Of a stretch of 64,000 nt of DNA, positions 14,478 to 62,907 are shown one piece after another; the stretch's first letter is position 1, and each line of letters opens with the position of its first letter. Source of the DNA: Ignavibacteria bacterium (GTDB taxonomy: Bacteria; Bacteroidota; Ignavibacteria; Kapaibacteriales; UBA961); assembly GCA_016720145.1 (NCBI GenBank), contig JADJXV010000002.1:152279-216278 (forward strand), read 5' to 3'. The notes beneath the pieces are model-generated. The model made no database searches and was not told the origin of the DNA. It saw only the letters and a list, made by a program, of their open reading frames with translations. The translations under genes were made by a program, and so were the position numbers.

Positions 14478-17400
14478 TTACACCGCGATACGGCGCTTGC
14501 CGAGTCTGCGGTATCCATCTGAACCTTCGGGTTCTTCTTCTTGTGCGTCATCGAGGATTGCATCCGCGCCAAAGATATTACCCACTTGACTTGTGACTAC
14601 CATATCTTGGTATCTGCGTAAGCCGGTACCGGCCGGAATAAGCTGACCGAGAATGATGTTTTCTTTGAGTCCCATGAGGTTATCGGTTTTTGCTGATACT
14701 GACGCGTCTGCAAGAACACGAGTAGTTTCTTGGAACGATGCAGCGGAGAGCCAGCTCTCAGTTTGCAAGGATGCCTGTGTAATTCCAAGCAAGAGCGGAT
14801 CGGCGCTTGCCGGATCTGCGGGGCGGGCTTCTGCCATAATCTTGTCTTTCTTTTTGAGATCGATATTTGCCTCGCGGAAACGTTTTTTAGTAACAAGCTG
14901 TCCGACTTTGAAGCGTGCTTCACCTTTATCAGTGATCACGACATGATTTTTGAGCATTTCGTTTTCATCGTAGAATTTGATCTTATCGATTTGATCATTT
15001 TCGAGGAATGTTGAGTCGCCTGCATCGCTAATTTTAACTTTTTGAAGCATTTGACGCACGATGATTTCGATGTGCTTATCGTTGATTTTCACACCTTGCA
15101 TACGATAGACTTCCTGAATTTCATTCGTCAAATACTCTTGTACGGCATTTGCACCTTTGATACGGAGGATATCGTGCGGATTGATCGACCCATCGCTGAG
15201 TCTATCACCGGCACGTACGAGATCACCCTCCTGCACGAGCAAATACTTACTGGTAGCGACGGCAGATTCGGAACGTGTTTGACCGTCCAAACTAGTAATA
15301 ATCACAGCACGTTGTCCACGTTTTGCTTTGTCGAATGAAATTATACCGTCAATTTCAGCTACAATAGCAGGATTTTGAGGTGCGCGGGCTTCGAATAACT
15401 CGGTAACTCGCGGCAGACCTCCTGTAATATCACGCATACGACCAAGATCCCGTGGAATTTTTACAAGTTTGGTACCTACGCCGACTACTTCCATATTATC
15501 AACAATAATCTGAGCGCGGATTGGAATGATATAGGTCTGTAAAATATTACCAAGTTCATCGACAATTTCAATCGCCGGCATCTTTGTCCGGTCACGAGAT
15601 TCCATCACCACACGTGTAATGTGACCTGTTTGCTCGTCATTTTCCTCACGGAAGGTAACGTTTGCCTGTAAGTCTTTATAGCGAATAGTACCTGGCTTTT
15701 CCGTTATAATCGCCGCATTGTACGGATCCCATTCATAAATTGTCTCACCTTTTGCTACGTGCTGACCGTCCTGGATCTTGAGAAGCGCGCCATAAACGGC
15801 ATCATACTTCGTAAGAATACGGTTACTATCTGATTCTACAAGATTTATCACACCACTTCGGCTAACAACCACATGCATTTTGCCATCACTTTCGTCATCA
15901 TCATAGCTTACGGTTTTGATATTTTCAAATTGAATCACACCGTCAAATTTCGCTGTAATAATTGATTGTGAAGCAACAAGCGATGCTGTACCACCCGTGT
16001 GGAACGTACGCAATGTAAGCTGAGTACCCGGCTCGCCAATTGACTGTGAAGCAATCGTTCCGACGGCTTCACCCACGTCAACTACTTGACCGGTCGCCAT
16101 ATTACGGCCGTAACATCTCACACAAATTCCACGGCGGGATTCGCAGGTAAGTACTGATCGTATAAGAACAGAATCAATAGAAGACTCTGCAATCTTGTGC
16201 GCGATATCTTCGTTGATAATACCGCCTGCTTTAATCATCACTTTATCTGTCAACGGGTTAACTATGTCAACGAGTGCAAAACGTCCTAAAATACGCTCAG
16301 CAAGAGGTTCTTTAATATCTTCACCTTCTTTGAGAGCGCGCATTTCCATACCTCTGATAGTACCGCAGTCCATTTCAGAGATAATCATATCTTGTGCTAC
16401 GTCATGCAAGCGTCGTGTCAAGTAACCTGCATCGGCAGTTTTCAACGCTGTATCGGCAAGACCTTTACGTGCACCGTGCGTAGAAATGAAATACTCAAGA
16501 ATTGTCAGACCTTCTTTGAAGTTGGAAATAATCGGGTTTTCAATCAATTCCGCGCTCGAACCTGTTTGTGACTTCTGCGGCTTTGCCATCAATCCCCGCA
16601 TACCGGCAAGCTGACGGATTTGCTCTTTCGAACCCCGTGCTTGCGAGTCAAGCATCATCCAGAATGGGTTGAAACCTTCGTCCGCTTTTTGGAGATCGAA
16701 GTATAGTCTATCCGCTACACGGTTAGTAGCAGTGGACCACGTATCAATGATCTTATTATAGCGTTCACCGGCTGTAATCACACCATTTTGGTAGTATTCT
16801 TCAATTGTATCAACAGTTTCCTGCGCTTTTTTGATAATGGTTTCTTTTTCTGCCGGGATCACAACGTCGTGAATTCCAACAGAAAGTCCACCTTTAGTCG
16901 CAAATGCAAAACCCATTTCCTTCATTGCATCCAAGAATTCGACTGTCTTCGCAGGACCGGCCTTGCGGAAACACTGCCCGATAATTTGACGGAGTCGGTT
17001 CTTGGTAAGTAATTCATTGAGATAACCCATTGCTTCAGGCACGACTTGATTAAACAATAATCGACCTGTAGTTGTATCGATCATCTTACCTTTAATTCTC
17101 ACAAGAATTTTGGCGTGAAGATCTAATTTCCCTGAGTTATAGGCGATAATCACTTCTGAAGCACAAGAAAACTGCTTATTTTCACCCGGTGCGCCACGAC
17201 GAAGTTTCGTCAAGTAATACGCACCAAGCACCATGTCTTGTGATGGAACTGTAATAGGATCACCGTGTTGCGTGTGCATCACATTATGTGGTGCCAGCAT
17301 GAGGAGCAATGCTTCGAGCTGAGCTTCGTGACTAAGCGGTACGTGAACGGCCATTTGGTCACCGTCAAAGTCGGCATTGAAAGCTGTACACACAAGTGGA

Positions 17401-18773
17401 TGCAATTGCAAAGCTTTACCTTCGATAAGTCGCGGCTGGAATGCTTGAATACCCAATCGGTGAAGAGTAGGAGCACGGTTGAGCATGATTGGGTGACCGT
17501 CGATTACTTTCTCTAAAATATCCCACACTTCATTGGTTTTACGTTCGACTAATTTCTTCGCGCTTTTGACAGTCTTCACATGTCCGCGTTCAATTAACTT
17601 ACGGATAACAAACGGCTTAAACAATTCAACAGCCATGTCTTTCGGCAAACCGCATTCGTGAATTTTGAGTTCAGGTCCGACCACAATAACCGAACGTCCG
17701 GAATAATCAACCCGCTTACCGAGCAAGTTCTGACGGAAACGACCAGTTTTACCCTTGAGCGTATCTGCAAGTGATTTGAGTGCACGCTGTGACTCACTTC
17801 GTACTGAACGTCGGCTATTATCGAATAAGGCATCGACTGATTCCTGTAGCATACGCTTTTCATTACGAAGAATCACTTCCGGCGCTTTGATATCAATTAA
17901 TCGACGTAATCTGTTATTGCGGATTATCACCCGACGATAGAGGTCATTCAAGTCAGAAGTAGCAAATCTTCCGCCTTCGAGAGGTACAAGAGGACGTAAA
18001 TCAGGAGGAATGACCGGCACAACGTCTAGTACCATCCATTCAGGATGGTTAGGGAGTCCGCCGCCATCCGGAGGAAGGAATGATTCTAATATTCTCAAGC
18101 GTTTGAGAAGTTCAGTTTTCTTCGTTTGTGAAGTCTCCTCACGCAATTGATCGCGCATTCTGTAATACGTTGCTTCAGGATCAATTCGCTTAAGTAACTC
18201 TTTAATTGCTTCACCACCAATTAAACATATAAACTTACGATGATCATCATCATCCATATTGCGTTCAGCATTGGAGAGCGAGCCGAGCACTTCGAGGTAT
18301 TGTTCTTCTGTCAATAAATCTTTTACCTGCAAGCCGGTACTCCCCGGCTGAACTACCACATAAGACTCGTAATAGATGATACGCTCAACATCTTTTGTCG
18401 GCATCGCAAGTGAGTGGCTGATCTTACTTGGGAGTGATCGTAAGAACCAAATATGCACGACAGGAACTGCAAGCATGATGTGTCCCATACGCTCACGGCG
18501 AACGGATTTCTGGGTCACTTCCACACCGCATCGATCGCACACAATTCCTTTATATCGAATACGCTTATATTTACCACAAGCGCATTCCCAATCTCGGATT
18601 GGTCCAAATATTTTTTCGCAGAACAGACCATCTTTTTCAGGACGGAATGAACGATAGTTGATAGTTTCTGGTTTTGTCACTTCACCATGAGAGCGGTTAA
18701 GCACTTCATCAGGTGAGGCAATTTTAATCGTAATTCGAGAAAATCCTTTTCTTGGAATAGAATGGGATTGCAT
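14478..18773 (-). CDS. rpoC: DNA-directed RNA polymerase subunit beta'
   Basis: It is 1431 aa. The [16 protein letters not shown] catalytic motif and zinc-binding Cys clusters are present. Confidence 0.97.
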
Positions 18774-18907
18774 GGATTTTTCTCCAATAAAAGTTCGTAA
18801 AGTATATTTTTAATTTTAATGGTTCACTTCTGCAAGTCAAGACCCGTCGCATGCGGTCACACTTGCCGTCCAACTGTTTGATTGATAATGCGTTATAGAA
18901 TAATCAC

Positions 18908-21900
18908 TTATTCAATAACGATATCCAAACAAAGACCTTGCAATTCACGTACAAGTACATTGAACGATTCAGGGATATTCGGATTCGGCATATTCTCGCC
19001 TTTTACGATTGTTTCGTACATTTTTGCACGACCCTGTACATCGTCCGACTTCACGGTAAGCATTTCTTGTAATGTGTGTGCCGCGCCGTATGCTTCGAGC
19101 GCCCAAACTTCCATTTCACCCAACCGTTGACCACCGAACTGAGCTTTACCACCAAGCGGTTGCTGAGTAATGAGAGAGTATGGCCCGATCGACCGTGCGT
19201 GAATCTTATCTTCCACAAGGTGGGAGAGCTTCAGCATATAAATCACACCGACCGTAATCACGTGATCAAATTGATCACCAGTCCGACCATCAAAGAGTAT
19301 AGTCTTTCCGGTACGTGGAAGTCCTGCTTTTTCAAGATAATCGCCGACTTCATCCCAGGTAGCGCCATCAAAAATCGGTGTTGCAAAGTGTACACCTAAT
19401 TTTTTGGCTGCCCATCCAAGTGCTGTCTCATACAATTGACCGAGGTTCATACGTGATGGCACGCCAAGTGGATTGAGGACGATATCAACGGGGGTACCAT
19501 CCGGCAAGAAAGGCATATCTTCAATCGCAACGATTTTCGATACAATTCCTTTATTACCGTGACGACCAGCCATTTTATCGCCTACTTGAAGTTTACGTTT
19601 TTTAGCTACATACACTTTCGCCATTTGTAGAATTCCCGGCTGGAGTTCATCTCCGGCTGCAATTTTATTCCGTTCAGACTTCGCAGTCGCGCTGATATCA
19701 TTTTTATGAATTGCATAATTATGAAGGAGTTGGCGTACAAGTGACATTTTATCATCTTCTGAGAACCAATCAGCATCCATATCGAGCAGCTCTAATTTTA
19801 ATGCGCCATCATCATACTTTGTCATGACATCTTTTGCCGTCAATGCAGTACCACCGCGGAAGACTACTTTGTCATTCGTAAGTCGAATACCCAGTGTAGT
19901 CATACCATCGAGTACTTTTGCAAGGCGGCGAGCTGTATCATCTTCGTGCTGTTTGAGAGTTTTTTGTTCACGTTTTGAGATTTGCTCTTGACGTTTTTTC
20001 TCTTCCTGGCGAATTTGATCATCGCTTGTCATCACACGACGGCTAAAGAGTTTGGTATTTATTACCACGCCTTTAAGTCCTGGTGATGCTTTCATCGAAG
20101 CATCTTTTACATCTCCGGCTTTGTCACCGAAAATAGCACGAAGTAGCTTTTCTTCAGGTGTAGGATCGGTCTCACCTTTTGGAGTAATCTTACCGATGAG
20201 GATATCTCCTTCACGGACTTTAGCGCCCATGCGGATAATTCCAAAATCATCTAAGTCCTTAGTAGCTTCTTCGCTTACATTAGGTATTTCTTTTGTGAAT
20301 TCTTCTTCGCCTCGCTTTGTATCACGAACCTGAAGAGTTGATTCTTCAATATGAATAGAGGTATAAATATCTTCTGCAACAAGTCGCTCTGAGATAATAA
20401 TAGCATCTTCAAAGTTGTATCCACGCCAAGGCATGAATGCTACGAGCACGTTCTGTCCTAGAGCGAGCTCGCCTAATTCAGTCGCTGCACCGTCTGCTAA
20501 CGGCTGACCTTTCTTAACTCGTTGATCAGCAACGACAAGCGGCCGTTGATTGATACAAGTATCTTGATTTGTTCTGAAGAATTTAAGCAGACGATAGGTC
20601 TTGGTATTATCATTGTCAAATGATACTAATTTCTGTACATCTGTTCGGATATCGTCGTATCGTACTCTAATGAAATCAGCGCAAACATACTCGACAATTC
20701 CATCTCCTTCGGCAGCTGTCAGAGCTCTGGAATCATGAGCCACACGAGCTTCCATACCGGTACCGATAAGGGGAGCTTTTGGTTTTAATAGGGGGACGCC
20801 TTGGCGTTGCATATTCGAACCCATAAGCGCACGGTTCGCATCATCATGTTCCAAAAATGGGATCAGTGATGCGGCAGGGCTTGTGATCTGATCTGTCGTT
20901 ATATCCATATATTCGATGTCTTTAGGAGACACCACGAGGAAGTCACCTGACAAACGAGCTTTTACTCTTTCCCCAAGTAGCATACTATCTTTATCTGTTT
21001 CAGTCGAAGCAGGTGCAATCAGCTTTCCTTCTTCTTTTTCAGCTGTAAGATATTCAATTACATCGGTTACTTTACCGTGCTCTACTTTATGATACGGCGT
21101 TTCGATAAAACCAAAATGATTTATTCTCGCATGTATCGAAAGAGAAGAAATAAGACCAATGTTTGGACCTTCCGGTGTTTCAATCGGGCAAAGTCGTCCG
21201 TAGTGAGTATAGTGCACGTCACGAACTTCAAATCCAGCTCGCTCTCGGGTAAGACCTCCGGGTCCGAGTGCAGAAGTACGACGCTTATGAGTTAACTCAG
21301 ACAATGGATTGGTTTGATCCATGAATTGCGACAACTGATTTGTACCGAAAAACTGATTAACTACACTTGTAATTGTCCGTGCATTTACAAGTTCGGCAGG
21401 AGTTGTCGTTTCACCGTCATGTACGCTGAGACGTTCTTTAATAGTTCTTGACATTCTTGAAAGGCCGAGATTAAACTGAGCCGATAACTGTTCACCGACT
21501 GTTCGCACCCGACGATTACCCAAGTGATCGATATCATCGACATTGTGTTTTTGTCCATGCAAATCAATCAGATACTTGATTATTTCAATAATATCGTCAA
21601 TTCGCAATGTTGTATGACTAAGCGGTACATCTTGAATACCTAGTTTGTCATTTATTCTAAACCGACCCACGACACCTAAATCATATCTTTTGGGATTAAA
21701 GAACAATTTATCGAGTAGTGCAGCTGCTGTTTCTACGTCAGGTGCATCGGTTGAGCGGAGCTGACGGTAGATTGCTTCGAGAGCATCTTCTCGTGTTTTG
21801 GTAGTATCTTTAGCAAGTGTTTTTGCGAGGACAGGTTCATCTGCTGCATTCTCATAACTGAAAAATTTGACTTCAGTTAAGTCAGCTGTTTTGATAATAT

Positions 21901-22732
21901 CAAGTAATGCATCATCGATAACCATATCACGAACTGCTAAAATTTCACCGGTTGAAAGGTCAATGACATCTGAGCCTATACGGCGACCTAAATATGCTTC
22001 TGTGATATCTGCAGCTGGCACAGTAACCGACATATTGAAGAGGGTCAGAATTTGTTCGTCAGACGAGAACCCCAAAGCACGAAGCAGTGTAGTAACAGGG
22101 AATTTCTTTTTACGGTCGATATATGCATACATCACATCATGTATATCGGTTGTAAACTCAACCCATGATCCTTTGAACGGAATAATTCTCGCCGTAAATA
22201 TACGTGTACCATTTGGGTGTACAGCATCAGCAAAAAATACTCCCGGGGAACGATGCAACTGTGCGACAATTACTCGCTCAGCACCGTTAATAATAAATGT
22301 TCCGCGAGGTGTCATTGCAGGAATATTACCAAGATAGACTTCCTGTTCGATAGGGTCGATATAATCTTCAGATGAGGGATCTGCTTTACTTGAAAGTCGC
22401 AATTTGGCTTTCAATGCTTTAGCATAGGTCAGCTCACGCTCACGACATTCATCCTCGTTATACTTTGGCTTTTCGATGGAATATTCCAAAAACTCAAGCT
22501 GGAATACTTCAGAATTATCTTCAATTGGAAAATTAGTCACAAAAGCTTGCTGGAGGCCTGCTACAGCTCGCTGAGATGGTGGCACCTCTTCTTGTAAAAA
22601 TTCTTGATAAGAATCTAATTGTAAATTTAGCAAATCTGGATAGCTTGATTCATCAGCGGGACGATGGGCAAAATTTATGCGATTACGCAATCGTACGATT
22701 GTACCCGGATGCGAGAATGGGTTTGTCTTCAC
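18908..22732 (-). CDS. rpoB: DNA-directed RNA polymerase subunit beta
   Basis: It is 1274 aa with canonical rpoB blocks and sits immediately upstream of rpoC. Confidence 0.97.
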   Translation of the reverse strand: MKTNPFSHPGTIVRLRNRINFAHRPADESSYPDLLNLQLDSYQEFLQEEVPPSQRAVAGLQQAFVTNFPIEDNSEVFQLEFLEYSIEKPKYNEDECRERELTYAKALKAKLRLSSKADPSSEDYIDPIEQEVYLGNIPAMTPRGTFIINGAERVIVAQLHRSPGVFFADAVHPNGTRIFTARIIPFKGSWVEFTTDIHDVMYAYIDRKKKFPVTTLLRALGFSSDEQILTLFNMSVTVPAADITEAYLGRRIGSDVIDLSTGEILAVRDMVIDDALLDIIKTADLTEVKFFSYENAADEPVLAKTLAKDTTKTREDALEAIYRQLRSTDAPDVETAAALLDKLFFNPKRYDLGVVGRFRINDKLGIQDVPLSHTTLRIDDIIEIIKYLIDLHGQKHNVDDIDHLGNRRVRTVGEQLSAQFNLGLSRMSRTIKERLSVHDGETTTPAELVNARTITSVVNQFFGTNQLSQFMDQTNPLSELTHKRRTSALGPGGLTRERAGFEVRDVHYTHYGRLCPIETPEGPNIGLISSLSIHARINHFGFIETPYHKVEHGKVTDVIEYLTAEKEEGKLIAPASTETDKDSMLLGERVKARLSGDFLVVSPKDIEYMDITTDQITSPAASLIPFLEHDDANRALMGSNMQRQGVPLLKPKAPLIGTGMEARVAHDSRALTAAEGDGIVEYVCADFIRVRYDDIRTDVQKLVSFDNDNTKTYRLLKFFRTNQDTCINQRPLVVADQRVKKGQPLADGAATELGELALGQNVLVAFMPWRGYNFEDAIIISERLVAEDIYTSIHIEESTLQVRDTKRGEEEFTKEIPNVSEEATKDLDDFGIIRMGAKVREGDILIGKITPKGETDPTPEEKLLRAIFGDKAGDVKDASMKASPGLKGVVINTKLFSRRVMTSDDQIRQEEKKRQEQISKREQKTLKQHEDDTARRLAKVLDGMTTLGIRLTNDKVVFRGGTALTAKDVMTKYDDGALKLELLDMDADWFSEDDKMSLVRQLLHNYAIHKNDISATAKSERNKIAAGDELQPGILQMAKVYVAKKRKLQVGDKMAGRHGNKGIVSKIVAIEDMPFLPDGTPVDIVLNPLGVPSRMNLGQLYETALGWAAKKLGVHFATPIFDGATWDEVGDYLEKAGLPRTGKTILFDGRTGDQFDHVITVGVIYMLKLSHLVEDKIHARSIGPYSLITQQPLGGKAQFGGQRLGEMEVWALEAYGAAHTLQEMLTVKSDDVQGRAKMYETIVKGENMPNPNIPESFNVLVRELQGLCLDIVIE

Positions 22733-22989
22733 GGAAAGACCTCCTTGTGTAAGATTTCTATAACGAAGTAAAAAGATAATATTACGAGCTTGAATATGTT
22801 CAAATAACTCGAAATGCTGCTTTTGACGTATGAAAAAATTAGGATTTCCCGACTATTCCATTGCGATACGGATAGCCAAAAAATCCTTCAATATTGTTGT
22901 GCAAAACAATGTGCATTTTGCAATAATTGTTGTTTTTTATGCGCTTAAGAAATTTTCTCAATACGCTAAAATCAATCGAAAATTTAATC

Positions 22990-23030
22990 CGAAAAAGGAC
23001 GGCTGCGATTTGTAAGCAACCGTCCTTTTA
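22990..23030 (-). promoter_or_regulatory. rplL-rpoB intergenic attenuator or partial terminator hairpin
   Basis: The inverted repeat is aggacggctgc...gcaaccgtcct, followed on the minus strand by a T-run. The position matches the known rplL-rpoB attenuator. Confidence 0.5.
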
Positions 23031-23086
23031 CATTGTAAGTGCTATTGTAATCTAACGATTAGAGTACTAAAACATTTGTGTTAAAA

Positions 23087-23467
23087 TTACTTTAGTGTAA
23101 CTTTAGCACCAACTTCTTCAAGTTTCTTTTTGATAGCATTTGCTTCGTCTTTAGAAGCTTGTTCTTTTACGATTTTTGGAGCGCCTTCTACCAAGTCTTT
23201 AGCTTCTTTCAAGCCTAAACCTGTGATTTCGCGAATAACTTTAATAGCGTTTAATTTTTGTGCGCCACCTTCTGTTAATTCAACGTCAAATTCAGTCTGC
23301 TCTTCAACTACTGCTGCCGGTCCTGCTGCTGCCGGTCCTGCTGCCATCATCATAGGCGCAGATGCTGTGACACCAAATTTTTCTTCAAGTGCTTTTTTTA
23401 GTTCAGATGCTTCTAAAAGAGTAAGATTGCTGATTTTTTCGACTAATTCATCTACAATTGCTGACAT
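23087..23467 (-). CDS. rplL: 50S ribosomal protein L7/L12
   Basis: The sequence is [33 protein letters not shown]... Confidence 0.95.
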
Positions 23468-23541
23468 TGCAGTTCTCCTAATAAGATAAATAAATAATTA
23501 AATTTTATGTTTGAGCACAGTAGTGCTATTTATAAAGCAAG

Positions 23542-24066
23542 TTACGCTGCTTTTTTCTTTGCTACTTCTTCAACTAACGAAGCAACATCACGCATAACTG
23601 CGTTGATTGTACCAACGATACCGGATATTGGAGAGTTTAAGCTGCCCAAAATTGCGGCAATGATGTCTTCTCTAGTTGGAAGTTCTGAAATCTGCTTAAG
23701 TTGTGAACCATCAAAGACTTGGCCTTCAATGACTGCAGCTTTAAGCTGGAGTTTGTTGTTTTTTTCGCTGAACTCCCGTATGATTTTGGCAGGTGCAATC
23801 GGATCGGCATAGCCCAAGGCAAGTCCGGATTGACCTATTACTTTATCTTCAGGTATATCAAATCCACCAACTTCTTTCATTGCACGAAGTATAAGTGTAT
23901 TCTTAGCTACTTTGAACTTTATACCTTTCTTGGTAAGCTCAGAGCGGACTGCATTAGAATCTTTGACTGTCATGCGAGAATAATCAACGAGATACAAACC
24001 CTTCGCACCGCGCAGTAAGCCAACTAATTCATCAACTAATTCCTGTTTTTTTTCTTTTGTAACCAT
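23542..24066 (-). CDS. rplJ: 50S ribosomal protein L10
   Basis: It is a 174 aa L10-like protein located between rplA and rplL. Confidence 0.93.
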   Translation of the reverse strand: MVTKEKKQELVDELVGLLRGAKGLYLVDYSRMTVKDSNAVRSELTKKGIKFKVAKNTLILRAMKEVGGFDIPEDKVIGQSGLALGYADPIAPAKIIREFSEKNNKLQLKAAVIEGQVFDGSQLKQISELPTREDIIAAILGSLNSPISGIVGTINAVMRDVASLVEEVAKKKAA

Positions 24067-24232
24067 AGCTGCGAGAATTTCTATAAATAAAATGATGCTA
24101 AGATAGATAAATCCGTAAAAGTTACGGTAGAAGCTTTATCTATACAAAGCAAGTGCGTAATAGACATTATTGATAATAGTGATGATTTGGATCGATCCTG
24201 TACTTGTAAGCACATCTAATGTAGAGAATTAA
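24067..24232 (-). promoter_or_regulatory. Putative rplJ mRNA leader, an L10(L12) autoregulatory region
   Basis: Inferred from position only, as the 166-nt untranslated spacer upstream of rplJ. No structure was verified. Confidence 0.3.
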
Positions 24233-24934
24233 TTATTCGTGTACACTCAATGATTGCTCTGAAACATGAATACCAGGACCCATTGTGGAGCTAAAAGCAA
24301 TACTTTTAACATATTTACCCTTTGCAGTCTGTGGTTTTGCTCTCATAATACTTGTGAAAAACGTGTGCAAATTATCAGCAAGCTTGGATTCGTCGAAAGA
24401 GCATTTTCCGATAGAAGCGTGAATATTTCCTGTTTTATCGACGCGATACTCAATTTTACCTGCTTTTACCTCTCCTACAGCTTTACCTACATCGAATGTA
24501 ACCGTTCCGCTTTTAGGATTTGGCATCAAACCACGAGGACCAAGCACACGACCAAGCTTTCCAACTTCGCCCATGACATCTGGAGTCGCTATTATGACAT
24601 CGATATCTGCCCATCCGGATTGTAATTTTTCAATATACTCTTGAAACCCAGCATGATCCGCACCTGCTGCAAGTGCTTCCTGATCTTTTGGGGACTTAGC
24701 AAGAACAAGCACACGTACAGTCTTACCTGTCCCGTGAGGTAATGATACTGTACCACGAACCAGTTGATCAGCTTTGCGAGGATCCACACCTAGGCGAATG
24801 GCGATATCGAATGATTCGTCAAATTTCGCAGTAGCGTGTTTTTTAACAGTAGATATTGCTTCTTTAAAAGCAAATTCTTTTGATAAATTCAGAGACTTGA
24901 GAGCAGTTTTAAATCGTTTACCGTGCTTTTTCAT
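24233..24934 (-). CDS. rplA: 50S ribosomal protein L1
   Basis: It is a 233 aa L1 protein. Confidence 0.95.
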
Positions 24935-25018
24935 TATTTTATACTTTCTTGTTCAACAACGGACTTATACAAAGTTGCGGCAATCTTGCATCACGCAAAG
25001 ATTCCGCTGTCATAAAAA

Positions 25019-25444
25019 TTAATCTTCGATTGTCACACCCATACTACGGGCTGTACCACGCACCATACTCATCGCACTCTCAAGCGTATCACAGTTGAGA
25101 TCAGCCATTTTCTGCTTCGCTATTGATTCGACTTGCGCTTTGGTAAGCTTGCCCACTTTTGTGCGGCTAGGCTCGGCTGAACCTTTAGGAATTCCGGTTG
25201 CTTTTATAATAAGCGTCGGTGTTGGTGAGGATTTAAGGATAAACGTAAATGATTTATCAGAGTAGAAGGTAACTACTGCCGGTATTATCGAATCGCCATC
25301 TTTTGCTGTTTTAGCGTTGAATTGCTTGACGAACTCCATACCGCTAAGCCCGCGTTGACCAAATGCAGGCCCTACAGGAGGTGCCATTGTTGCTTGCCCT
25401 GCTTTAAGCTGGAGCTTAAACGATCCCATTACTTTCTTTGCCAT
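25019..25444 (-). CDS. rplK: 50S ribosomal protein L11
   Basis: It is a 141 aa L11 protein. Confidence 0.95.
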
Positions 25445-25499
25445 TGTCGAATTCTAAATAGTGAACAAAATCTGACTTTTTCTTGTGCGTAATATCCGA

Positions 25500-26075
25500 T
25501 TAATGATTTTCCATTTCCACACCACTGAAATCCAGCTCGACGGGGGTTTTTCTACCCAAAATACCTACTTCAACTTTGATTTTTTGCTTTTCATTGTTTA
25601 CTTCTTTTACGGTCCCGCTAAATCCTTCAAATGGCCCTTCGATTACTTTTACAGGATCACCAATAGTAAAGCTTATTTCAATTGTTGCAACGTTTTTACG
25701 TTCTTCTACCCGGCCTAATATTCGATTAACTTCATCAAGTTGGAGTGGAGTAGCTTCGTTTTTCGTACCAACAAAACTCACAATTGACGGCGAAGTTACT
25801 ATGATTTCTTTGAGTTTTTTATCGAGTATCACTTCGACCAGCAAGTATCCCGGAAGAAAATTTTTAATTCGAGTCCGGCGTTTACCGTTACGCACTTCGA
25901 ATACAGTTTCTTGGGGTATTATTATACTACGTATTTTGTCTTCAAGGTGCAATCGCTTGAGTTCCTGTTCTATACCTGTTTTAGCCTTTTGCTCATGACC
26001 GGTATACGTACGGAGTGCGTACCATTTGTAATCACCATTTTCAGTTAGAATCGGTTGTTCAGTAATTTCATCCAT
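25500..26075 (-). CDS. nusG: Transcription termination/antitermination factor NusG
   Basis: It has an NGN domain plus a KOW motif (...GDPVKVIEGPFEGFSGTVKEV...). Confidence 0.95.
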   Translation of the reverse strand: MDEITEQPILTENGDYKWYALRTYTGHEQKAKTGIEQELKRLHLEDKIRSIIIPQETVFEVRNGKRRTRIKNFLPGYLLVEVILDKKLKEIIVTSPSIVSFVGTKNEATPLQLDEVNRILGRVEERKNVATIEISFTIGDPVKVIEGPFEGFSGTVKEVNNEKQKIKVEVGILGRKTPVELDFSGVEMENH

Positions 26076-26479: not shown

Positions 26480-26552
26480 CACGGGAGGAGGGACTTGAAC
26501 CCCCAACCTTCGGTTTTGGAGACCGCGACTCTACCAATTGAGCTACACCCGT
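26480..26552 (-). tRNA. tRNA-Trp (anticodon CCA)
   Basis: I folded it by hand. The anticodon loop is CTCCAAA. D- and T-arms are present. There is one apparent T-T mismatch in the acceptor stem. Confidence 0.8.
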
Positions 26553-26568
26553 AGAACGTAATCTTGAG

Positions 26569-26642
<74 letters not shown>

Positions 26643-26665
26643 AGACTTACTCCATCCCCCGTTTG

Positions 26666-26738
<73 letters not shown>

Positions 26739-26788
26739 AGTACTTTTACCTGCTTAGAATACTACCCCTGCCATAGAACTACCCAATG

Positions 26789-26861
26789 AGCGGGAGACGA
26801 GACTCGAACTCGCGACCAACAGCTTGGAAGGCTGTGACTCTACCAACTGAGTTACTCCCGC
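26789..26861 (-). tRNA. tRNA-Gly (anticodon TCC)
   Basis: The acceptor is GCGGGAG/CTCCCGC. The anticodon loop is CTTCCAA. Confidence 0.85.
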
Positions 26862-26884
26862 TTATACTAACTACTTGAAAAATG

Positions 26885-26968
26885 TGGGCAGAGAAGGATT
26901 TGAACCTCCGTAACGCGAAGCGTGACAGATTTACAGTCTGTTGCCATTAACCACTCGGCCATCTGCCC
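26885..26968 (-). tRNA. tRNA-Tyr (anticodon GTA)
   Basis: It is 84 nt with a long variable arm. The anticodon loop is CTGTAAA. Confidence 0.85.
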
Positions 26969-44087: not shown

Positions 44088-45162
44088 TTGATGAATACGC
44101 ATCCCCTCCCTCTATCTACACACCTAATTGTTCGTCGATATTTATACCTGAGGATTTCTATTTTTTCGTTAATCATTGCTTTGACATCGGTGTATGTTTT
44201 CAGTTTACCAATGTCAATCCCGATACAAATCTTTCTATTTATCACCCTTACGTTTCTATTAAATTTACTTTTTATAAGTAATTTGGTCAAGTTTCTTAAT
44301 CAAATAAGCGAGACACCGTTTGTTCAAATTACTGAAGCCGCGAAACTCGTCTCCGGCGGAGTAACGACAGCCCGTGCAGTACTTGAGGCCATGCCGACAT
44401 CCGAGGCATTCCGCGCCGCCGAAGCAGTGAATGCTCTTGCCGATAAAGCAGGGAAAGATATAGCCGAAATGAAAAAATTAGAACGGGTACGGTCGGAGTT
44501 TTTGGAATGTATCGCACGAACTCCGCACGCCTATATTCTAGATTCAAGGTTACCTCGAGACTCTCCTAGACGGCGCTTTGGAGGACAAAGACGTGAGCCG
44601 AAAGTTTGTCGAGCGCGCCCATCAAAACACCAAACGTCTCAACATATTACTATCCGATTTAATTGACATTTCCAAGATTGAGTCCGGTGAAATGCGACTG
44701 AGTTTCCGGTATTTTAATCTCTGTGATATTATCCGCGAAACAATTGCATCACTCGAATTTCAGGCCACGTTGAGTGATGTTGAACTCTCATCTAATTGCA
44801 TAAATGAACAAGAACTTATGGTCTATGGCGACAAAGAGCGTCTCGCACAAGTAATTGTCAATATCATGCAGAATGCTATAAAATATAATCGTGAGAAGGG
44901 TACTGTACAGGTCATAGTCGAGACGCGAGCTCAAGACGTAAAAGTAAGGATAATCGACACAGGGATTGGAATTCCCGAGGAACAGAAATCGCGGATTTTT
45001 GAGAGATTTTACAGGGTCGATTCAGGACGTTCGCGGAGTGTTGGCGGTACTGGCTTGGGACTTGCAATCGTTAAGCACATTTTAGAAGCGCATCAAGCAC
45101 CATTTGGCGTCGAGAGTACACTTGGTGTTGGTACGGAGATTTGGCTGGTGTTGAAGAGGTGA
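44088..45162 (+). pseudogene. Membrane sensor histidine kinase carrying both a 1-nt frameshift (about 44497-44510) and an in-frame TAG (44539-44541) inside the HisKA H-box region
   Basis: Frame A reads ...KKLERVRSEF. Frame B reads SFWNVSHELRTPIF[TAG]IQGYLETLLDGALEDKDVSRKFVERAHQNTKRLNILLSDLIDISKIESGE..., then an HATPase_c domain (...IDTGIGIPEEQKSRIFERFYRVD...GGTGLGLAIVK...). Two TM helices are present N-terminally. Confidence 0.6.
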
Positions 45163-57724: not shown

Positions 57725-57820
57725 ATGCCATGCGGCAAAAAACGCAAACGTCATAAAATGGCGACGCACAAAAGAAAAAAACGTCTTCGTAAGAACAGAC
57801 ATAAAAAGAAGAGTCGGTAG
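57725..57820 (+). CDS. Very basic 31-aa protein (MPCGKKRKRHKMATHKRKKRLRKNRHKKKSR), possibly a bS22-like ribosomal protein. It is absent from the ORF track.
   Basis: An RBS gaggt lies 9 nt upstream. It is followed by a strong terminator. Its composition resembles the AURKAIP1/bS22 family (KRKR...KKKHRK...). Confidence 0.4.
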   Translation: MPCGKKRKRHKMATHKRKKRLRKNRHKKKSR

Positions 57821-57825
57821 TTAAT

Positions 57826-57861
57826 AAACGCGCTTTGGATTATATCCGAAGCGCGTTTTTC
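57826..57861. terminator. Bidirectional rho-independent terminator
   Basis: The hairpin is aaacgcgcttt...aagcgcgttttt. It serves the plus-strand small ORF and the minus-strand gene ending at 57860. Confidence 0.65.
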
Positions 57862-58204
57862 ATTTTATGCCAAAAATCATACTCAGGAACCAAGAAATAC
57901 AACTAATTATTATCGCACCTAATATTGCTGAACCAAACCCACGAATCTCAAATCCATCCAATATCCCTGCACAAATCCAGAGTACCACGCCATTGATAAG
58001 CAGTGAAAACAAACCAAACGTAAGTAGTATAAATGGGAAGGAGAAAAACGCCAGCACGGGCTTTAATACTGCATTAAGCAAACCAAGCACTACAGCCGCC
58101 ATGATTGCTGTGGTGAAATTACGGATGGTGATACCCGGCAAAAGCGCCGCAGTACCAAAAATTGCCACTGAATTGACGAGCCATATCAAGAGTAATCGAA
58201 TCAT
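57860..58204 (-). CDS. Phage_holin_4_2 / DUF360-family small membrane protein. I trimmed the start to MIRLLLIW... because the ORF-track extension to 58285 would overlap the intron 5' end.
   Basis: It has three or four TM helices. The pattern is ...LLPGITI...AAVVLGLLNAVLKPVL...LINGVVLWICAGIL... Confidence 0.55.
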   Translation of the reverse strand: MIRLLLIWLVNSVAIFGTAALLPGITIRNFTTAIMAAVVLGLLNAVLKPVLAFFSFPFILLTFGLFSLLINGVVLWICAGILDGFEIRGFGSAILGAIIISCISWFLSMIFGIK

Positions 58205-58219
58205 GCTAACCTCATTGTA

Positions 58220-60200
58220 GGTGCGCCAAGCGAAGCTTGGTATATTCAGAAGGTGCAAATCCTTCGCGGGAAGGGAGCCACCCACCCGCTACCGCAATCG
58301 TACGCTGTGTGAGGTAACAAGCCCAGTGAAGCTACGACGAGGGAGATATCAGACCGCAACGCAAGTGAAGGTATTGAGCCCCGAAATAGGTCAGGCTATG
58401 ATGGCAGACTGTCTCTACAAACAGGAATGCAATAACAACATGTTCGTATGGCTTGAGCATGTAGTCATCATCGGGGTCTAAGTCCGCAGTATGATATCAA
58501 ACGGATATATCAGGAACTTGGGATATCCACTATACTTGCCATTTGGCATAAGCGCAACCAAATCCGAAAAGGAGTAGAATGCGTAACGGTATAATGGAAG
58601 TCGGATTAGCCCATAGTAGCGTCAAGCTCTGCGAAAGCAGAGGTATGCATGCAGAAGCATTCAATTCTGGTGTAGCGCGAAGGGGCTGACAATTGTATGT
58701 ATTGTATAAAGGAAACGTATATGGCTCATAGAACACAATCAGATACGGCAACGAAACTTATACAACTAAGCAAGGTCTCGAAGGACTCTCCCAAATACAA
58801 GTTTGGCTCATTGGCAAGCTTGCTGAACGAGGAGTACCTTAGAACGTGCTATGCCGAACTTCCCCGTAAGAAGGCACTTGGCATAGACGGAGTGAGTGTA
58901 GAAGAATACGGAGAATCGCTGGAAGCGAATCTTAGTGGATTGGTAGAACGGATGAAAAGCATGTCGTATCGTCCGCAAGCCGTGCGTAAGAAGGAAATAC
59001 CGAAAGAACGAGGAGGAACGCGCACATTGGGCATTCCCTCGACGGAGGACAAGATAGTCCAGAAAGGTATATCCTCAATACTAACGGCACTATTCGACCC
59101 AAGTTTTATCGAGACATCCTACGGTTTTAGAGAAAAGATGGGTTGTCACGATGCGTTGAAGCAGGTACATCAAGAGATAACCCTCAAGCGCGTAAACTAT
59201 ATTATCGATGCAGATATTAAATCGTTTTTCGACAATGTTAACCATGATTGGTTAGTACAGTTTCTGGAACATCGGATAAAAGACAAGAAATTTATTCGAC
59301 TGATTATCAGATTTCTGAAAGCAGGAATCATGGATGAAGGTAGCTTTAGAGCGAGCGACAAGGAACGCCCCAAGGCGGCATCATTAGCCCAATCTTAGCA
59401 AACATATACCTTCATTATGTGCTTGACATTTGGTTCGAGAAAGGATTGAAGAAAGAGCTTCAAGGCTATGCATCGATAGTACGGTATGCAGACGACTTTA
59501 TCATACTTGTAGAACGAGAATCGGACTGCACATTGATATTGGAAGCTTTGCGATTACGGCTTGCGAAGTTCAAGCTTGAATTATCGGAAACCAAGACATC
59601 GGTAGTAAAATTTGGTCGTAATACGGACACAAGCGACGAGCGCAAACATCCGGGAACGTTTGATTTTCTTGGGTTTACGCATTACTGTGGCAAAACCAAA
59701 GCAGGCAAATTCAAGGTATGCAGACGGACAAGCAAGTCCCGCTTCCGCCTTGGCATTCGCAAGGTGAGCGTGTTTCTGAAGGAACACAAGAATACCTATA
59801 CGCTGCAAGAACTCTGGGAAAGTATATCCCAAATGGTACGTGGTCACTATCACTATTATGGTGTAAGTGAAAACAGCAAATCATTATGGAATTACAAAGA
59901 CAAAGTAAAGAAACTTCTTTATAAGTGGCTCAATCGTCGAAGTCAGAAGAAGAGCTACACGTGGGAGAGTTTCAAGCAGTATGTATTCAAGTATCCACTT
60001 CCGGAACCCAAGATATTCGTAAGCTTCTATAATCACTGACAGCGGAATGCAATTGAGGAGCCGTGTGAGGGAAATCCTCAAGCACGGTTCTGTGAGGGGG
60101 AGCAATGCACATCCAAGAAATACACATACTAAGGCACAAAAGCAGAAATGCGGACACGGAGCTACGGTGGAATCTAAAGTATGTGGATTAGCTCTCTACT
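58220..60200 (+). mobile_element. Group II intron, about 2 kb. The 5' end is GUGCG, ORF-less domain I spans about 58220-58690, the IEP sits in domain IV, and domain V is at 60057-60090. The 3' end is approximate.
   Basis: The 5' end is gtgcgccaagcgaag... at 58220. Domain V gagccgtgtgagggaaatcctcaagcacggttc is a 34-nt hairpin with a GAAA loop and an AGC triad. An RT/maturase ORF lies between. Confidence 0.75.
58697..60039 (+). pseudogene. Group II intron reverse transcriptase/maturase (RT domains 0-7 plus X, with no En/HNH domain). It is frameshifted by a 1-nt deletion near 59362, where a gg stands in place of ggg.
   Basis: ORF 1 ends ...ASDKERPKAASLAQS*. The shifted frame reads ...[31 protein letters not shown]..., continuing into ORF 59419..60039 with ...YVRYADDFIILVE... 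(YADD). Confidence 0.75.
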
Positions 60201-60289
60201 CGACAATTCAACAAAATCTTTATATAAAATAAGAAATTATTATTTTATGTTTAAACAGTAATTTACTTCAGAGTTGACGTAGAAACATA

Positions 60290-60322
60290 AAAGCGGACTG
60301 CTCACTCAATGAACAGTCCGCT
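60290..60322 (-). terminator. Rho-independent terminator of the LysM transglycosylase gene
   Basis: The hairpin is gcggactgctcactcaatgaacagtccgc, followed on the minus strand by ttttatgttt. Confidence 0.6.
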
Positions 60323-60348
60323 AGTATAAACAAATGCTTTAATCGATA

Positions 60349-62907
60349 TTACTGTATTCGAAGTGTTTGTCCGGCACGAATGTCTGATTTATTACCGAGC
60401 TTGTTTTTTGTTCGAAGTGTTGCAATTGAAACTCCAAATTTTTCAGCTATTTCTGCAAGAGAGTCTCCGGAACGCACTTTGTAATGCTTTGGTAAATGAG
60501 ATATCTCACGTGATTGAGCCTCAGCACTACCTTTGGATATCTGGCTTCCGAAAACTTTTAGCTGTTCACCTGCAATTATCCTATCCTTTTTAAGTGTTGG
60601 ATTCCAAGAACGAAGTTCATCATCTTTCACACCGTACAAAGCTGCTATTTCACCCAAATTTTCACCTTTTTTTACTTTGTGATATTTCACTGATGATGCA
60701 GCTAACCGCGTATTTTTTTTCTCACTCGATTGAGATGCTGAGTATGATGATGAACTAGATGAAATAGCTGGTATTGTTAGTATTTGACCGGCTACAATCG
60801 AAGATGTGCGCTTAATTCGGTTTGTTTTCTTAAGTGTTTCTACCGTTACATTATAATCATCTGCTATTTGAGCTAGAGTTTCGCCTCTTACTATTTTATG
60901 AGTTAGAGACTTAGCATACTGATTGTTAATATTTTTCTCTGTCGTTTTTTGGCTGGATAAAGTAGTACTTATTTCTTTATCGGGTGCGATTATGAGTTTA
61001 CTGCCTAGCTGAACAATATCATTTCCTATAGATATGTTATTCCAATTCCTCAAGTCAGTTAGTCGAACCCCATACCTTTGTGAAATGCTGTAAAGTGATT
61101 CTCCTGCACGTGTAGTATGTGTGATGGTTTTAGAACGATCTACTTGGATTGCTTCGCTGTCCAAAGTTTTGTCATTTGACTTTTCAGTAGATCTTTCTAA
61201 TTGTTTGTCTTGAGAGTGTTCAAATTGTTTTTCGGCTATATTTCCTGATTGGAGTGCGTTTGATGACTGTCCATTATTTTGAACTGTAACTTGTTCGGAC
61301 TGTGTTGCGCTCTCAACTGATTCAGCTTTGGATTGAATAGTCGACGCTATGAGCACAGGCGCAGCATTATTCGTTGATTCCATCGGTACTCTAAGTGTAG
61401 TACCTCGTTTGAGTTTTGTTTTATATCCGGTAATTTGATTGAGTGAAGCAATTTCTTGTGAAGGTACTCCGTATTGAGTTGCAATAGAAGAAAGCGTTTC
61501 ACCTTTTTTTACTTCATGCATTGTCCAAGGTCGCTTCTCATCATCAGCTAACATTGCAAAACTTGTAGAAAATACATCCTTTTTTCCTATAGGGAGCTTT
61601 AAACTATAGGCACCGGCTGTCGGTGGAGTACAAATACTTACCAATTCTGTATTGAGCATACGAAGCTCTTGAATTGAAAGATCTGCGCATTTTGCTAATG
61701 ATTTAATACTGACAGGTTCCGTAATTGATATAGTTTCATATTGATATTCCGGTTCGAAATTCAGCTCTTCCTGACTAAATCCATAATTTTCAGGATTCAG
61801 TGTAATGAGAGTGGTAGCTATATAAAGTGGTACGTAGCTTCTAGTCTCCCGAGGTAAATTCTCGCGAATATCCCAAAAAGTAGCATGCTCGGATTTTGCT
61901 TTTGCTAATGCTCGTCGAATTGATCCATTCGGACCGCAATTATAGGCAGCAAGAGCTAAATGCCAGTCACCAAATTCATTATATAAGCTGCGAAGATACC
62001 GCATAGCTGCGCGAGTTGATTTTTCTGGATCACGGCGTTCGTCAACCCAGAAATTAACATTAAGGTTATAATCTGTAGCAGCAGCTTGCGTAAACTGCCA
62101 CAATCCTACTGCCTTGGCGCGAGATACAGCATTTGGATTTAATGCACTTTCTATCATCGAAAGATACATAATTTCCTCAGGCATACCTTCTTCTTTTGCA
62201 ATGCGACGCATCATTGGGAACCATTTAGTTCCTCGCTCAAGCCAATGTTTAAAAAATTTACGACCACGTTCTTGTGTTAAAAACGCAAGGCTTTTCTCGA
62301 CAGATTCGTTATTTACTAAAGGGATTGTAAGGGAAGGGAGGGAAGATGTTACCGGAAACTTAAGCGAAGGATACGTTTTGATTGTCGTTACTTCGGGTCG
62401 GCTATCTCGAGAATATGCATCAACTTCGGCGAATAACTTTTCTCTTAAAATAAAAGCTGAAGAATTTTCGGAGAGGTTATCAATATTTTGAATATAACTC
62501 TCATAATCTTCGATAATTGACTGAGCTAAATCTGTAAAGTCTTCATTTTGTTCGATATTAGGATAGCTCACCAACCCGTGAAGTAGTTCTATGGCAGATT
62601 CGAATTGAGTAGTAGCGCCAATCGTATCTTGCTTTTCAATTGAAGTGAGAGCACGTAAATATTTTTGACGTGCTTTTTCTAATTTTTGACTAATTGGACT
62701 CGTTACACCTTTTTGAGTCTTATCATCAAAATCTGAATACTCATCTGGAAAAGTAGGTGCTTTTGTAGCGGTATTGATGTGCGTTGGCTGTAATCTACTC
62801 GTAGCCTGCTGGGCTGAAACCGTTTGCTCACAAACAACAAACGTGCATGCTGAACTGAAGCAGAAAAGTACTGCTAAGAAAACAAGGCGCTGCTTTGATA
62901 TCACCAT
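60349..62907 (-). CDS. Membrane-bound lytic murein transglycosylase D-like protein with an SLT domain plus about five LysM repeats
   Basis: SLT motifs are ...ESALNPNAVSRAKAVGLWQFTQAAA... and ...AAYNCGP... There are multiple LysM units (...YKVKKGENLGEIAALYGV..., ...HKIVRGETLAQIADDYNV..., and others). Confidence 0.85.
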   Translation of the reverse strand: MVISKQRLVFLAVLFCFSSACTFVVCEQTVSAQQATSRLQPTHINTATKAPTFPDEYSDFDDKTQKGVTSPISQKLEKARQKYLRALTSIEKQDTIGATTQFESAIELLHGLVSYPNIEQNEDFTDLAQSIIEDYESYIQNIDNLSENSSAFILREKLFAEVDAYSRDSRPEVTTIKTYPSLKFPVTSSLPSLTIPLVNNESVEKSLAFLTQERGRKFFKHWLERGTKWFPMMRRIAKEEGMPEEIMYLSMIESALNPNAVSRAKAVGLWQFTQAAATDYNLNVNFWVDERRDPEKSTRAAMRYLRSLYNEFGDWHLALAAYNCGPNGSIRRALAKAKSEHATFWDIRENLPRETRSYVPLYIATTLITLNPENYGFSQEELNFEPEYQYETISITEPVSIKSLAKCADLSIQELRMLNTELVSICTPPTAGAYSLKLPIGKKDVFSTSFAMLADDEKRPWTMHEVKKGETLSSIATQYGVPSQEIASLNQITGYKTKLKRGTTLRVPMESTNNAAPVLIASTIQSKAESVESATQSEQVTVQNNGQSSNALQSGNIAEKQFEHSQDKQLERSTEKSNDKTLDSEAIQVDRSKTITHTTRAGESLYSISQRYGVRLTDLRNWNNISIGNDIVQLGSKLIIAPDKEISTTLSSQKTTEKNINNQYAKSLTHKIVRGETLAQIADDYNVTVETLKKTNRIKRTSSIVAGQILTIPAISSSSSSYSASQSSEKKNTRLAASSVKYHKVKKGENLGEIAALYGVKDDELRSWNPTLKKDRIIAGEQLKVFGSQISKGSAEAQSREISHLPKHYKVRSGDSLAEIAEKFGVSIATLRTKNKLGNKSDIRAGQTLRIQ

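Follow-up and report, generated by a model that had tools for sequence, protein, structure and literature searches.

A class E-like group II intron without an endonuclease domain, its reverse transcriptase frame broken by one base as sequenced, in the genome of an Ignavibacteria bacterium

Introduction

What stands behind two adjacent open reading frames (ORFs) that share between them the motifs of a single reverse transcriptase (RT), and how complete is the element that carries them? The question is raised by one locus in a 64,000-nucleotide (nt) stretch of DNA from an Ignavibacteria bacterium (assembly GCA_016720145.1, contig JADJXV010000002.1, positions 152,279 to 216,278), which we call the window and number from its first letter. 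A first-pass annotation, made from the letters alone, had taken the locus for a group II intron with a frameshifted RT/maturase. We find that positions 58221-60204 (+) of the window are very probably a complete mobile group II intron, lacking an endonuclease (En) domain (En-minus) and belonging to a class E-like (IIB-type) lineage, in an Ignavibacteria metagenome-assembled genome (MAG). The group II intron call is borne out by the Rfam models for domain I and for domains V/VI, by the NCBIfam equivalog TIGR04416, and by pairing between exon-binding and intron-binding sites (EBS and IBS), and nothing counts against group II intron identity.

Results

The intron spans 1984 nt, from a 5' GUGCG (58221-58225) to a 3' CUACUCGAC with the terminal AC at 60203-60204, termini that agree with the GUGYG/AY rule. 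Its end sequences are GTGCGCCAAGCGAAGC ... CTCTACTCGAC.

58221-60204, + strand: complete group II intron, delimited by where homology to its relatives ends, by empty-site alleles and by Rfam

At gathering thresholds, Rfam found in the whole window RF02005 (group-II-D1D4-6) at 58256-58486, scoring 112.3 bits (gathering score 49; E=5e-31) with the model covered at full length (1-225), and RF00029 (domains V/VI) at 60056-60204, scoring 56 bits (gathering score 40); otherwise it found five tRNAs alone. The first-pass annotation had named the lack of any hit to a domain V or intron RNA model as a result that would refute its call; the domain I and domain V/VI models both score above their gathering thresholds. 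A permissive scan of 57800-60700 added one domain V model, sub-threshold, over the same domain V bases.

The ends were fixed with the help of relatives recovered from metagenomes, five of them 88-98% identical to the window intron in nucleotide sequence (L036, L037, L040, L041 and L042) and two 65-69% identical (L038 and L039); L040 is intron-internal only and L042 is without the 5' end, and the other relatives include one or both intron ends. In those with an intron end, the alignment to the window runs from GTGCGCC... to ...CTCTACTCGAC, and the sequence beyond is unrelated. Two syntenic contigs of related Ignavibacteria, L123 and L124, with flanks ~81% identical to those of the window and with the same gene order from LpxD through the LysM transglycosylase, have no intron and so present the empty site: the spacer between the DUF360 and LysM genes measures 168-175 bp in them versus 2144 bp in the window. 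The empty site reads unbroken as ...(A/G)GTAG|AATTCAACAAAA..., continuous across GTAG|AATTC. Because L123 and L124 read continuously across the junction, G58220 is the last exon base and A60205 the first base of the 3' exon, and the intron site is polymorphic for presence and absence between the window and these two contigs. The 5' end had earlier been placed at 58220; its GUGCG was correctly recognized, but G58220 belongs to the exon, and the start moves by 1 nt to 58221. The 3' end, formerly given as 60200, lies 4 nt farther on at 60204, and the fold puts the bulged A at 60198. The intron relatives occupy unrelated contexts, L039 being intergenic and L038 lying 16 codons before the end of an ORF. 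Elsewhere in the window, neither the intron, whole or in part, nor its target sequence occurs again.

The two + strand ORFs listed at the locus, 58697/58721-59398 and 59419-60039, are halves of one intron-encoded protein (IEP). When a single G is restored, 58721-59362 joins to 59362-60039 and a 439-amino-acid (aa) IEP results.

58721-59362, + strand: N-terminal 214 codons of the IEP with RT blocks 0-4, by translation and the RVT_1 match; the frame as sequenced stops at 59396-59398
59362-60039, + strand: C-terminal 225 codons of the IEP in the -1 frame, with GTPQGG, YADD (59485-59496), the thumb/X region and the stop codon at 60037-60039

With the one base restored, but not otherwise, the protein holds both RT and maturase (X) domains: RVT_1 matches residues 93-320 (E=1e-37) and GIIM residues 347-416, and TIGR04416 (group II RT/maturase) scores 365 bits against a cutoff of 300. 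Neither an HNH/En domain nor a C..C motif was found in the repaired IEP, which stops 23 residues past GIIM. The earlier description of the IEP, with RT blocks, YADD and X domain and without HNH/En, therefore holds in every part. The nearest solved structures are all group II intron RTs, namely GsI-IIC (best by sequence), the E. rectale IIC RT, LtrA and T.el4h. Longer relatives (517-553 aa) carry an extra N terminus, not a C-terminal En domain, and distant relatives (IEP identity 40-50%, from many phyla), which include plasmid-borne introns of Sinorhizobium and Bacillaceae, have the same Rfam subfamily and the same CUACUCGAC end.

Could the RT belong instead to a retron, a diversity-generating retroelement (DGR) or an anti-phage defence system, with a fortuitous likeness of the surrounding RNA to an intron? 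Weak, sub-threshold matches to the Drt3a, Drt2, retron St85 and PADLOC RT models might be read in this way, and are expected from shared RT motifs. Drt3a reaches 73 bits against a cutoff of 200 and retron St85 66 against 235, while GIIM is present and TIGR04416 is passed; moreover, there are full ribozyme matches for domains I, V and VI and a precise insertion with EBS/IBS pairing. The model scores and ribozyme matches refute such an identity, and we give it practically no chance of being right. Clustering of the RT with retrons or DGRs had been named at the outset as the result that would undo the intron call; the RT passes the group II equivalog, and the models for retrons and defence-associated RTs (DRT) stay far below their cutoffs.

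Turning to the RNA, the ~500 nt ahead of the ORF comprise domains I-III together with the 5' part of domain IV, and the earlier assignment of all of its ~480 nt before the IEP to domain I has to be given up.

58256-58486, + strand: domain I core (Rfam group-II-D1D4-6), 112.3 bits, full-length model
58215-58220, + strand: IBS1, UUGUAG, the final 6 nt of the 5' exon, a perfect complement of the EBS1 loop
58415-58420, + strand: EBS1, CUACAA, in the terminal loop of a domain I hairpin, 6/6 pairs with IBS1
58208-58212, + strand: probable IBS2, AACCU, in the register given by relatives L037, L038 and L039, 4/5 paired with EBS2
58388-58392, + strand: probable EBS2, AGGUC, in a hypervariable internal loop 5' of the EBS1 hairpin, the sole hypervariable stretch here
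58310-58317, + strand: conserved GUAA-capped hairpin tip of domain I, UGAGGUAA, by the invariance of GAGGUAAC and a GNRA-capped stem in the Rfam consensus
60058-60090, + strand: domain V, GAGCCGUGUGAGG-GAAAU-CCUCAAGCACGGUUC, 33 nt, with AGC triad and 2-nt bulge, by RF00029 and predicted fold
60093-60202, + strand: domain VI, 110 nt, by minimum-free-energy fold (z=-3.1), consensus fold and length comparison

EBS1 and IBS1 covary in four relatives, where each EBS1 loop fits its own exon: CAGGAG with CUCCUG in L038, UCUGAA with UUCAGA in L039, and GUUACAA with UUGUAGC in both L036 and L041. At the level of sequence comparison, this covariation is direct evidence of target recognition. The EBS2 loop likewise pairs to positions -13 to -7 of the own exon over 7 bp in L038, 6 bp in L039 and 5 bp in L037; it speaks against so neat a picture for the window copy that its EBS2-IBS2 pairing amounts to just 4/5, offset by 2 nt. 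Another candidate for EBS2, UGAGGU at 58310-58315, would give a contiguous 12-bp IBS2-IBS1 match with ACCUCA in the exon, and was rejected as a coincidence: GAGGUAAC, which makes up the GUAA-capped hairpin, does not vary among relatives that have unrelated targets. All 14 pairs of domain V are preserved in seven sequences. The textbook hairpin of the first-pass annotation stands, but not its GAAA loop, from which a U had been dropped (GAAAU). In the window copy, no lesion is found in the ribozyme part.

Domain VI has a basal helix of 10 bp (60093-60103 with 60191-60202) and the branch-point A60198 bulged at position -7; with its 110 nt, it is two to three times as long as is usual. The 3' end could be placed in 60 related introns: in 51 of them, linker plus domain VI take up 40-81 nt, one has 96 nt and another 172 nt, and the remaining seven, with 113-117 nt, are the clade of the window intron and the unrelated L069. 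The consensus fold of domain VI is retained in seven sequences with compensatory changes at six pairs, and its distal part (60104-60190 and the equivalents in L036-L042) has changed less in sequence than the ORF between copies that are 65-69% identical overall. The conserved distal blocks are GAAAUACACAU, GAGGCACA, GCAGAAAUGC and GGAAUCUAA, and a GAAA-capped internal hairpin lies at 60142-60151. No Rfam family matches the distal part. The published class E consensus permits 3-96 unshown nt inside domain VI (PMC4028801, Additional file 1), where the window intron has 89, and because this range is already allowed for, the long domain VI is a case of a known zone of variability within class E, not a new feature. 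A novel insertion or a 'domain VII' was also considered for the ~70 nt by which the stretch from domain V to the 3' end is extended, and was rejected, as these nucleotides sit inside the domain VI helix; the class E length range and the long domain VI in the L069 lineage count against it too. Perhaps the 110-nt domain VI of the window intron and its relatives with IEP identity of at least 62% is nevertheless a new functional RNA module, more than a tolerated expansion, which might serve as an alternative tertiary docking element that controls the branch-site helix, or bind either the IEP or some host factor; we regard this as improbable. These relatives are mostly on short metagenome contigs, with named members in Ignavibacteria and Candidatus Kapaibacterium MAGs.

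As for class, the first-pass annotation had suggested the group of classes C, D and E; its E-like part is retained, and its C and D parts did not survive a test of the features of those classes. By the boundary sequences published per class by the Zimmerly laboratory (PMC4028801, Additional file 1), the intron is class E-like, not class C or D. The first 5' segment of class E (GUGCGCCrrG...) is matched at 14 of 17 positions, and the class E-specific second segment, rnnyArnnGGUGnAA, is matched fully by AUUCAGAAGGUGCAA at intron positions 24-38. The class E domain V architecture of 13+5+15 and the UGUGnGGGGGn linker are present, domain V and linker together matching at 33/35 positions, and the 3' end agrees save for a tail one base shorter and a C at one purine-preferred (r) position. 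Several points weigh against this assignment. Past the branch A there are 6 nt (CUCGAC), like the class D consensus, where class E has 7 nt (CCnCGAy); a crude, ungapped consensus count gives 0.89 for class F versus 0.86 for class E; the distinction of class E from F depends solely on the linker and on the second 5' segment specific to E; and it is the boundary consensus from which the class was called.

That the intron belongs to another En-minus class, be it C, D, F or one of the unclassified 'g' groups, is in our estimation unlikely. En is absent in classes C, D, E and F alike (PMC4424553). Class D has been reported in Chlorobi and Bacteroidetes, and the class D consensus CU-A-CUCr-nC accommodates the 3' tail CU-A-CUCGAC without a mismatch; however, a regular-expression search of the IEP found no class D C-terminal motif LX3AX3PXLF[V/A]HW (PMC4615759), the 5' end is GUGCGCC, not GUGUGCC, and the AGAUG segment and GAGA domain V loop are both absent. 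Class C is at odds with a domain V that begins GAGCC, not CCGCC, with the existence of EBS2, and with the lack of a hairpin or terminator directly upstream on the + strand, where the nearest terminator is 362 nt away. Class F, favoured by the ungapped count, is structurally like E and weakly supported as a separate class (PMC3552965), but its second 5' segment yyAGyrGG is absent here and its GAyGAGGG linker has two mismatches. We therefore keep to the class E-like assignment.

The frameshift is the one feature of the intron that sets it apart from an intact mobile element.

59362-59363, + strand: frameshift site, GG for GGG (one G missing), by alignment to L036-L042

The single-base deletion that the first-pass annotation had seen in a G-run near 59362 was confirmed by all seven relatives, which read ...ATGGGAACG where the window reads ...AAGGAACG. 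In the relatives, the codons are GAC/GCA ATG GGA ACG (S-D/A-M-G-T-P-Q-G-G); the window has GAC AAG GAA CG, with an adjacent T-to-A change. Nowhere else in the intron does the window show a gap against a base in three or more of the five close relatives. Programmed frameshifting was rejected as an explanation, as no relative changes frame there and the site is not slippery. The IEP had been called non-functional: its frame is indeed broken as sequenced, but loss of function is uncertain, given a possible assembly artefact and a 96%-identical intact IEP that is probably in the same MAG.

We judge a biological lesion and an assembly error to be about equally likely, because the facts fit recent inactivation and residual long-read consensus errors alike. 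The chance that the real genome has GGG at 59362, leaving the intron intact and autonomous, falls in our estimate a shade short of even. In favour of such an error, the copy is otherwise pristine: at positions invariant elsewhere, it has two private substitutions in 1984 nt, both in the ORF and none in the ribozyme part, compared with 11-18 each in L036, L037 and L041, and the repaired IEP is 97.3% identical to the IEP P0144 and 95.9% to P0141. The lesion is a one-base loss inside a G run, and the window-unique residues S208, F209 and K214 cluster within 20 nt of the deletion (59343-59362), which resembles a locally poor consensus. The same window holds a broken histidine kinase gene (44088-45162, +), with an N-terminal ORF (44088-44666) and a HisKA/HATPase_c ORF (44578-45162) in different frames, an H-box of NVSHELRTPIF*IQGYLE with an in-frame TAG near 44539-44541, and a frame change just before the H-box; either the gene is a pseudogene, or the consensus is poor there. 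Multi-copy repeats, moreover, are the hardest sequence to polish, and the accession range of the window is probably that of long-read activated-sludge MAGs.

Against an error, defective copies are common, most bacterial group II intron copies being truncated (PMC4028801), and an in-frame TAG such as that of the histidine kinase is not a typical indel error. The other large genes of the window look intact, and in the 12 kb around the intron the gene lengths equal those of L123 and L124, which points to a low general indel rate; about three lesions per 64 kb would predict roughly 0.05 in a 1.3-kb ORF.

Further copies, known as proteins through cluster membership, bear on this balance. The LysM protein of the window is an exact match to MBK9247111.1 and its IHF is MBK9247107.1, the contig measuring 429,628 nt, and the 90% cluster of the IEP adds two 'Ignavibacteria bacterium' proteins with accession numbers near these. 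One, P0141 (MBK9249436.1), is an intact 439-aa IEP on a contig of 31,288 nt. The other, P0138 (MBK9248321.1), has 120 aa and lies on a 279,923-nt contig; its first 100 residues match the window IEP but for one residue, and its frame is lost past residue 101, elsewhere than in the window copy. The accession numbering suggests that P0141, P0138 and the window copy probably come from one MAG, and if so, that MAG would have at least three intron copies, two of them broken by different indels. That a second near-identical copy is broken elsewhere is a further point for an assembly error.

The neighbourhood of the intron is as follows.

57860-58204, - strand: DUF360/Phage_holin_4_2 gene (Pfam E=2e-32), its ATG 16 nt from the intron 5' end
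60205-60348, - strand: native upstream region of the DUF360 gene, now displaced, with the terminator of the LysM gene (60292-60322, -) inside it, by terminator scan and empty-site alignment
60349-62907, - strand: lytic transglycosylase gene with SLT and five LysM domains, by Pfam and the exact match to MBK9247111.1

On the + strand, the intron is flanked by the start of the DUF360 gene, whose orthologue has 114 aa in both L123 and L124, and by the end of the LysM gene, both on the - strand, so that its earlier placement as intergenic and antisense to both neighbours is upheld. No coding sequence is interrupted, as also stated before, though the insertion splits a conserved leader, 16 nt ahead of the ATG of the DUF360 gene. 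This is a minus-strand block, TTTTGTTGAATTCT, 16-30 nt upstream of that codon (window 58206-58220 plus 60205-60218; L123 7399-7430; L124 7400-7431), kept across strains with otherwise diverged intergenic DNA; at the block, L123 and L124 read TAcTTTTG and TAtTTTTG, and the window AGATTTTG. As the LysM gene is followed by a terminator of its own (60322-60292, -), the layout suggests that the DUF360 promoter was probably within 60205-60290, a region now 2 kb away. Since the intron lies downstream of a strong + strand terminator (57826-57858), which ends the nearest upstream + unit, the intron itself is probably weakly transcribed.

One might suppose that the intron has been co-opted and regulates the DUF360 gene from 16 nt upstream, for example by an outward promoter or an antisense RNA. 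The split of the block directly upstream of the gene would suit this, and outward promoters are described for group IIC-attC introns (PMC3001079). However, the closest syntenic relatives do without the intron, promoter-like matches inside it are at chance level (6 versus 6.2 expected in shuffled sequence), and its relatives occupy unrelated contexts, and we consider co-option very improbable.

Three observations stand apart from the intron. At 57726-57821 (+), with the strong terminator after it, is a 31-codon, extremely basic ORF, MPCGKKRKRHKMATHKRKKRLRKNRHKKKSR, with no Pfam match; its protein is 100% conserved in L123 and L124 where the DNA is ~81% identical, and for that reason we take it to be a real small gene. 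In L038, at 6979-7606 (-), gene calling splits a thymidylate kinase into two adjoining ORFs (85 and 125 aa), probably by an assembly frameshift unrelated to the window. The five tRNAs of the window form a cluster (26480-26968, -) that adjoins the ribosomal-protein/rpoB-rpoC region (14478-26075, -), an ordinary arrangement.

Discussion

The element is an ordinary and well-understood one, a further group II intron, and its arrival can be pictured along known lines. The intron RNA would have reverse-spliced into the DNA site ...AACCUCAUUGUAG|A..., the site being recognized mainly through the 6 bp of EBS1-IBS1 with partial help from EBS2-IBS2 (4/5), and cDNA would then have been made by an RT of the intron's own type. 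Because the IEP has no endonuclease domain, we infer that the nascent DNA strand at a replication fork may have served as primer, by analogy with class D RmInt1, whose En-minus ribonucleoprotein (RNP) reverse-splices into single- or double-stranded DNA and uses the nascent fork strand as primer (PMC5894124, PMC4615759). En-minus class D introns also show a bias for the lagging-strand template (PMC4615759). The GC skew of the window follows gene orientation and is uninformative as to replication direction.

The family to which the intron belongs appears to be multi-copy and recently active in Ignavibacteria and Kapaibacteria MAGs. For splicing and retromobility, the polymorphism at the window site and the several near-identical copies in related MAGs are indirect signs. 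In a Candidatus Kapaibacterium MAG, the IEP P0146 (MFN8360191.1, MFN8360192.1, MFN8360414.1 and MFN8361152.1), 85% identical to the window IEP, is present in at least four identical intact copies and a truncated one. If the frameshift of the window copy is real, this copy cannot make its own RT/maturase, and its splicing and mobility would need the 96%-identical intact IEP, probably from the same genome; trans-acting IEPs support ORF-deleted introns experimentally. An assembly error, on the other hand, would leave a fully autonomous copy.

For annotation, the exact ends 58221-60204 together with the class allow the locus to be labelled as a mobile intron, not as two orphan RT fragments. For the host, the insertion has severed the DUF360 gene from its native upstream region. 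For the assembly, the frameshift should not be taken as biology before a check of the reads, and it serves as a warning on assembly quality, considering that indel lesions affect two out of the three copies that probably share one MAG, as well as a housekeeping-type gene of the window.

It remains to place the intron among known systems. Like the class C (IIC) introns GsI-IIC and B.h.I1, it is En-minus and intergenic, as these usually are; but IIC introns insert right after terminator hairpins, do without EBS2 and have a domain V of the form CCGCC..., and the window intron has none of these features. In class B introns of the B.c.I4 type, an extra ~55 nt follow domain VI and the splice site is shifted (PMC2691827, PMC4424553), whereas the extra RNA of the window intron is inside the domain VI helix and the spacing from branch A to 3' end is normal. 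With the experimentally studied En-minus RmInt1 of Sinorhizobium meliloti (class D/IIB3), it shares an IEP made of RT and maturase only, target recognition of the EBS1, EBS2 and EBS3 type, a multi-copy state in the host that for the window intron is probable, the expected use of a replication-fork primer, and copy decay by point mutation (PMC5894124, PMC4615759); it differs in lacking the class D C-terminal motif and boundary sequences, and in an IEP of 439 aa versus 419 aa. The likeness to class E extends over the 5' GUGCGCCrrG..., the rnnyArnnGGUGnAA segment, a 33-nt domain V with a 5-nt nAAnn loop, the UGUGnGGGGG linker, a domain VI of variable size, and an RT+X protein without D/En, with the difference that the domain VI of the window intron reaches the upper end of the lengths published and is conserved in sequence in its distal part. 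Its Rfam subfamily, RF02005, is also that of the accessory-plasmid introns of Sinorhizobium meliloti.

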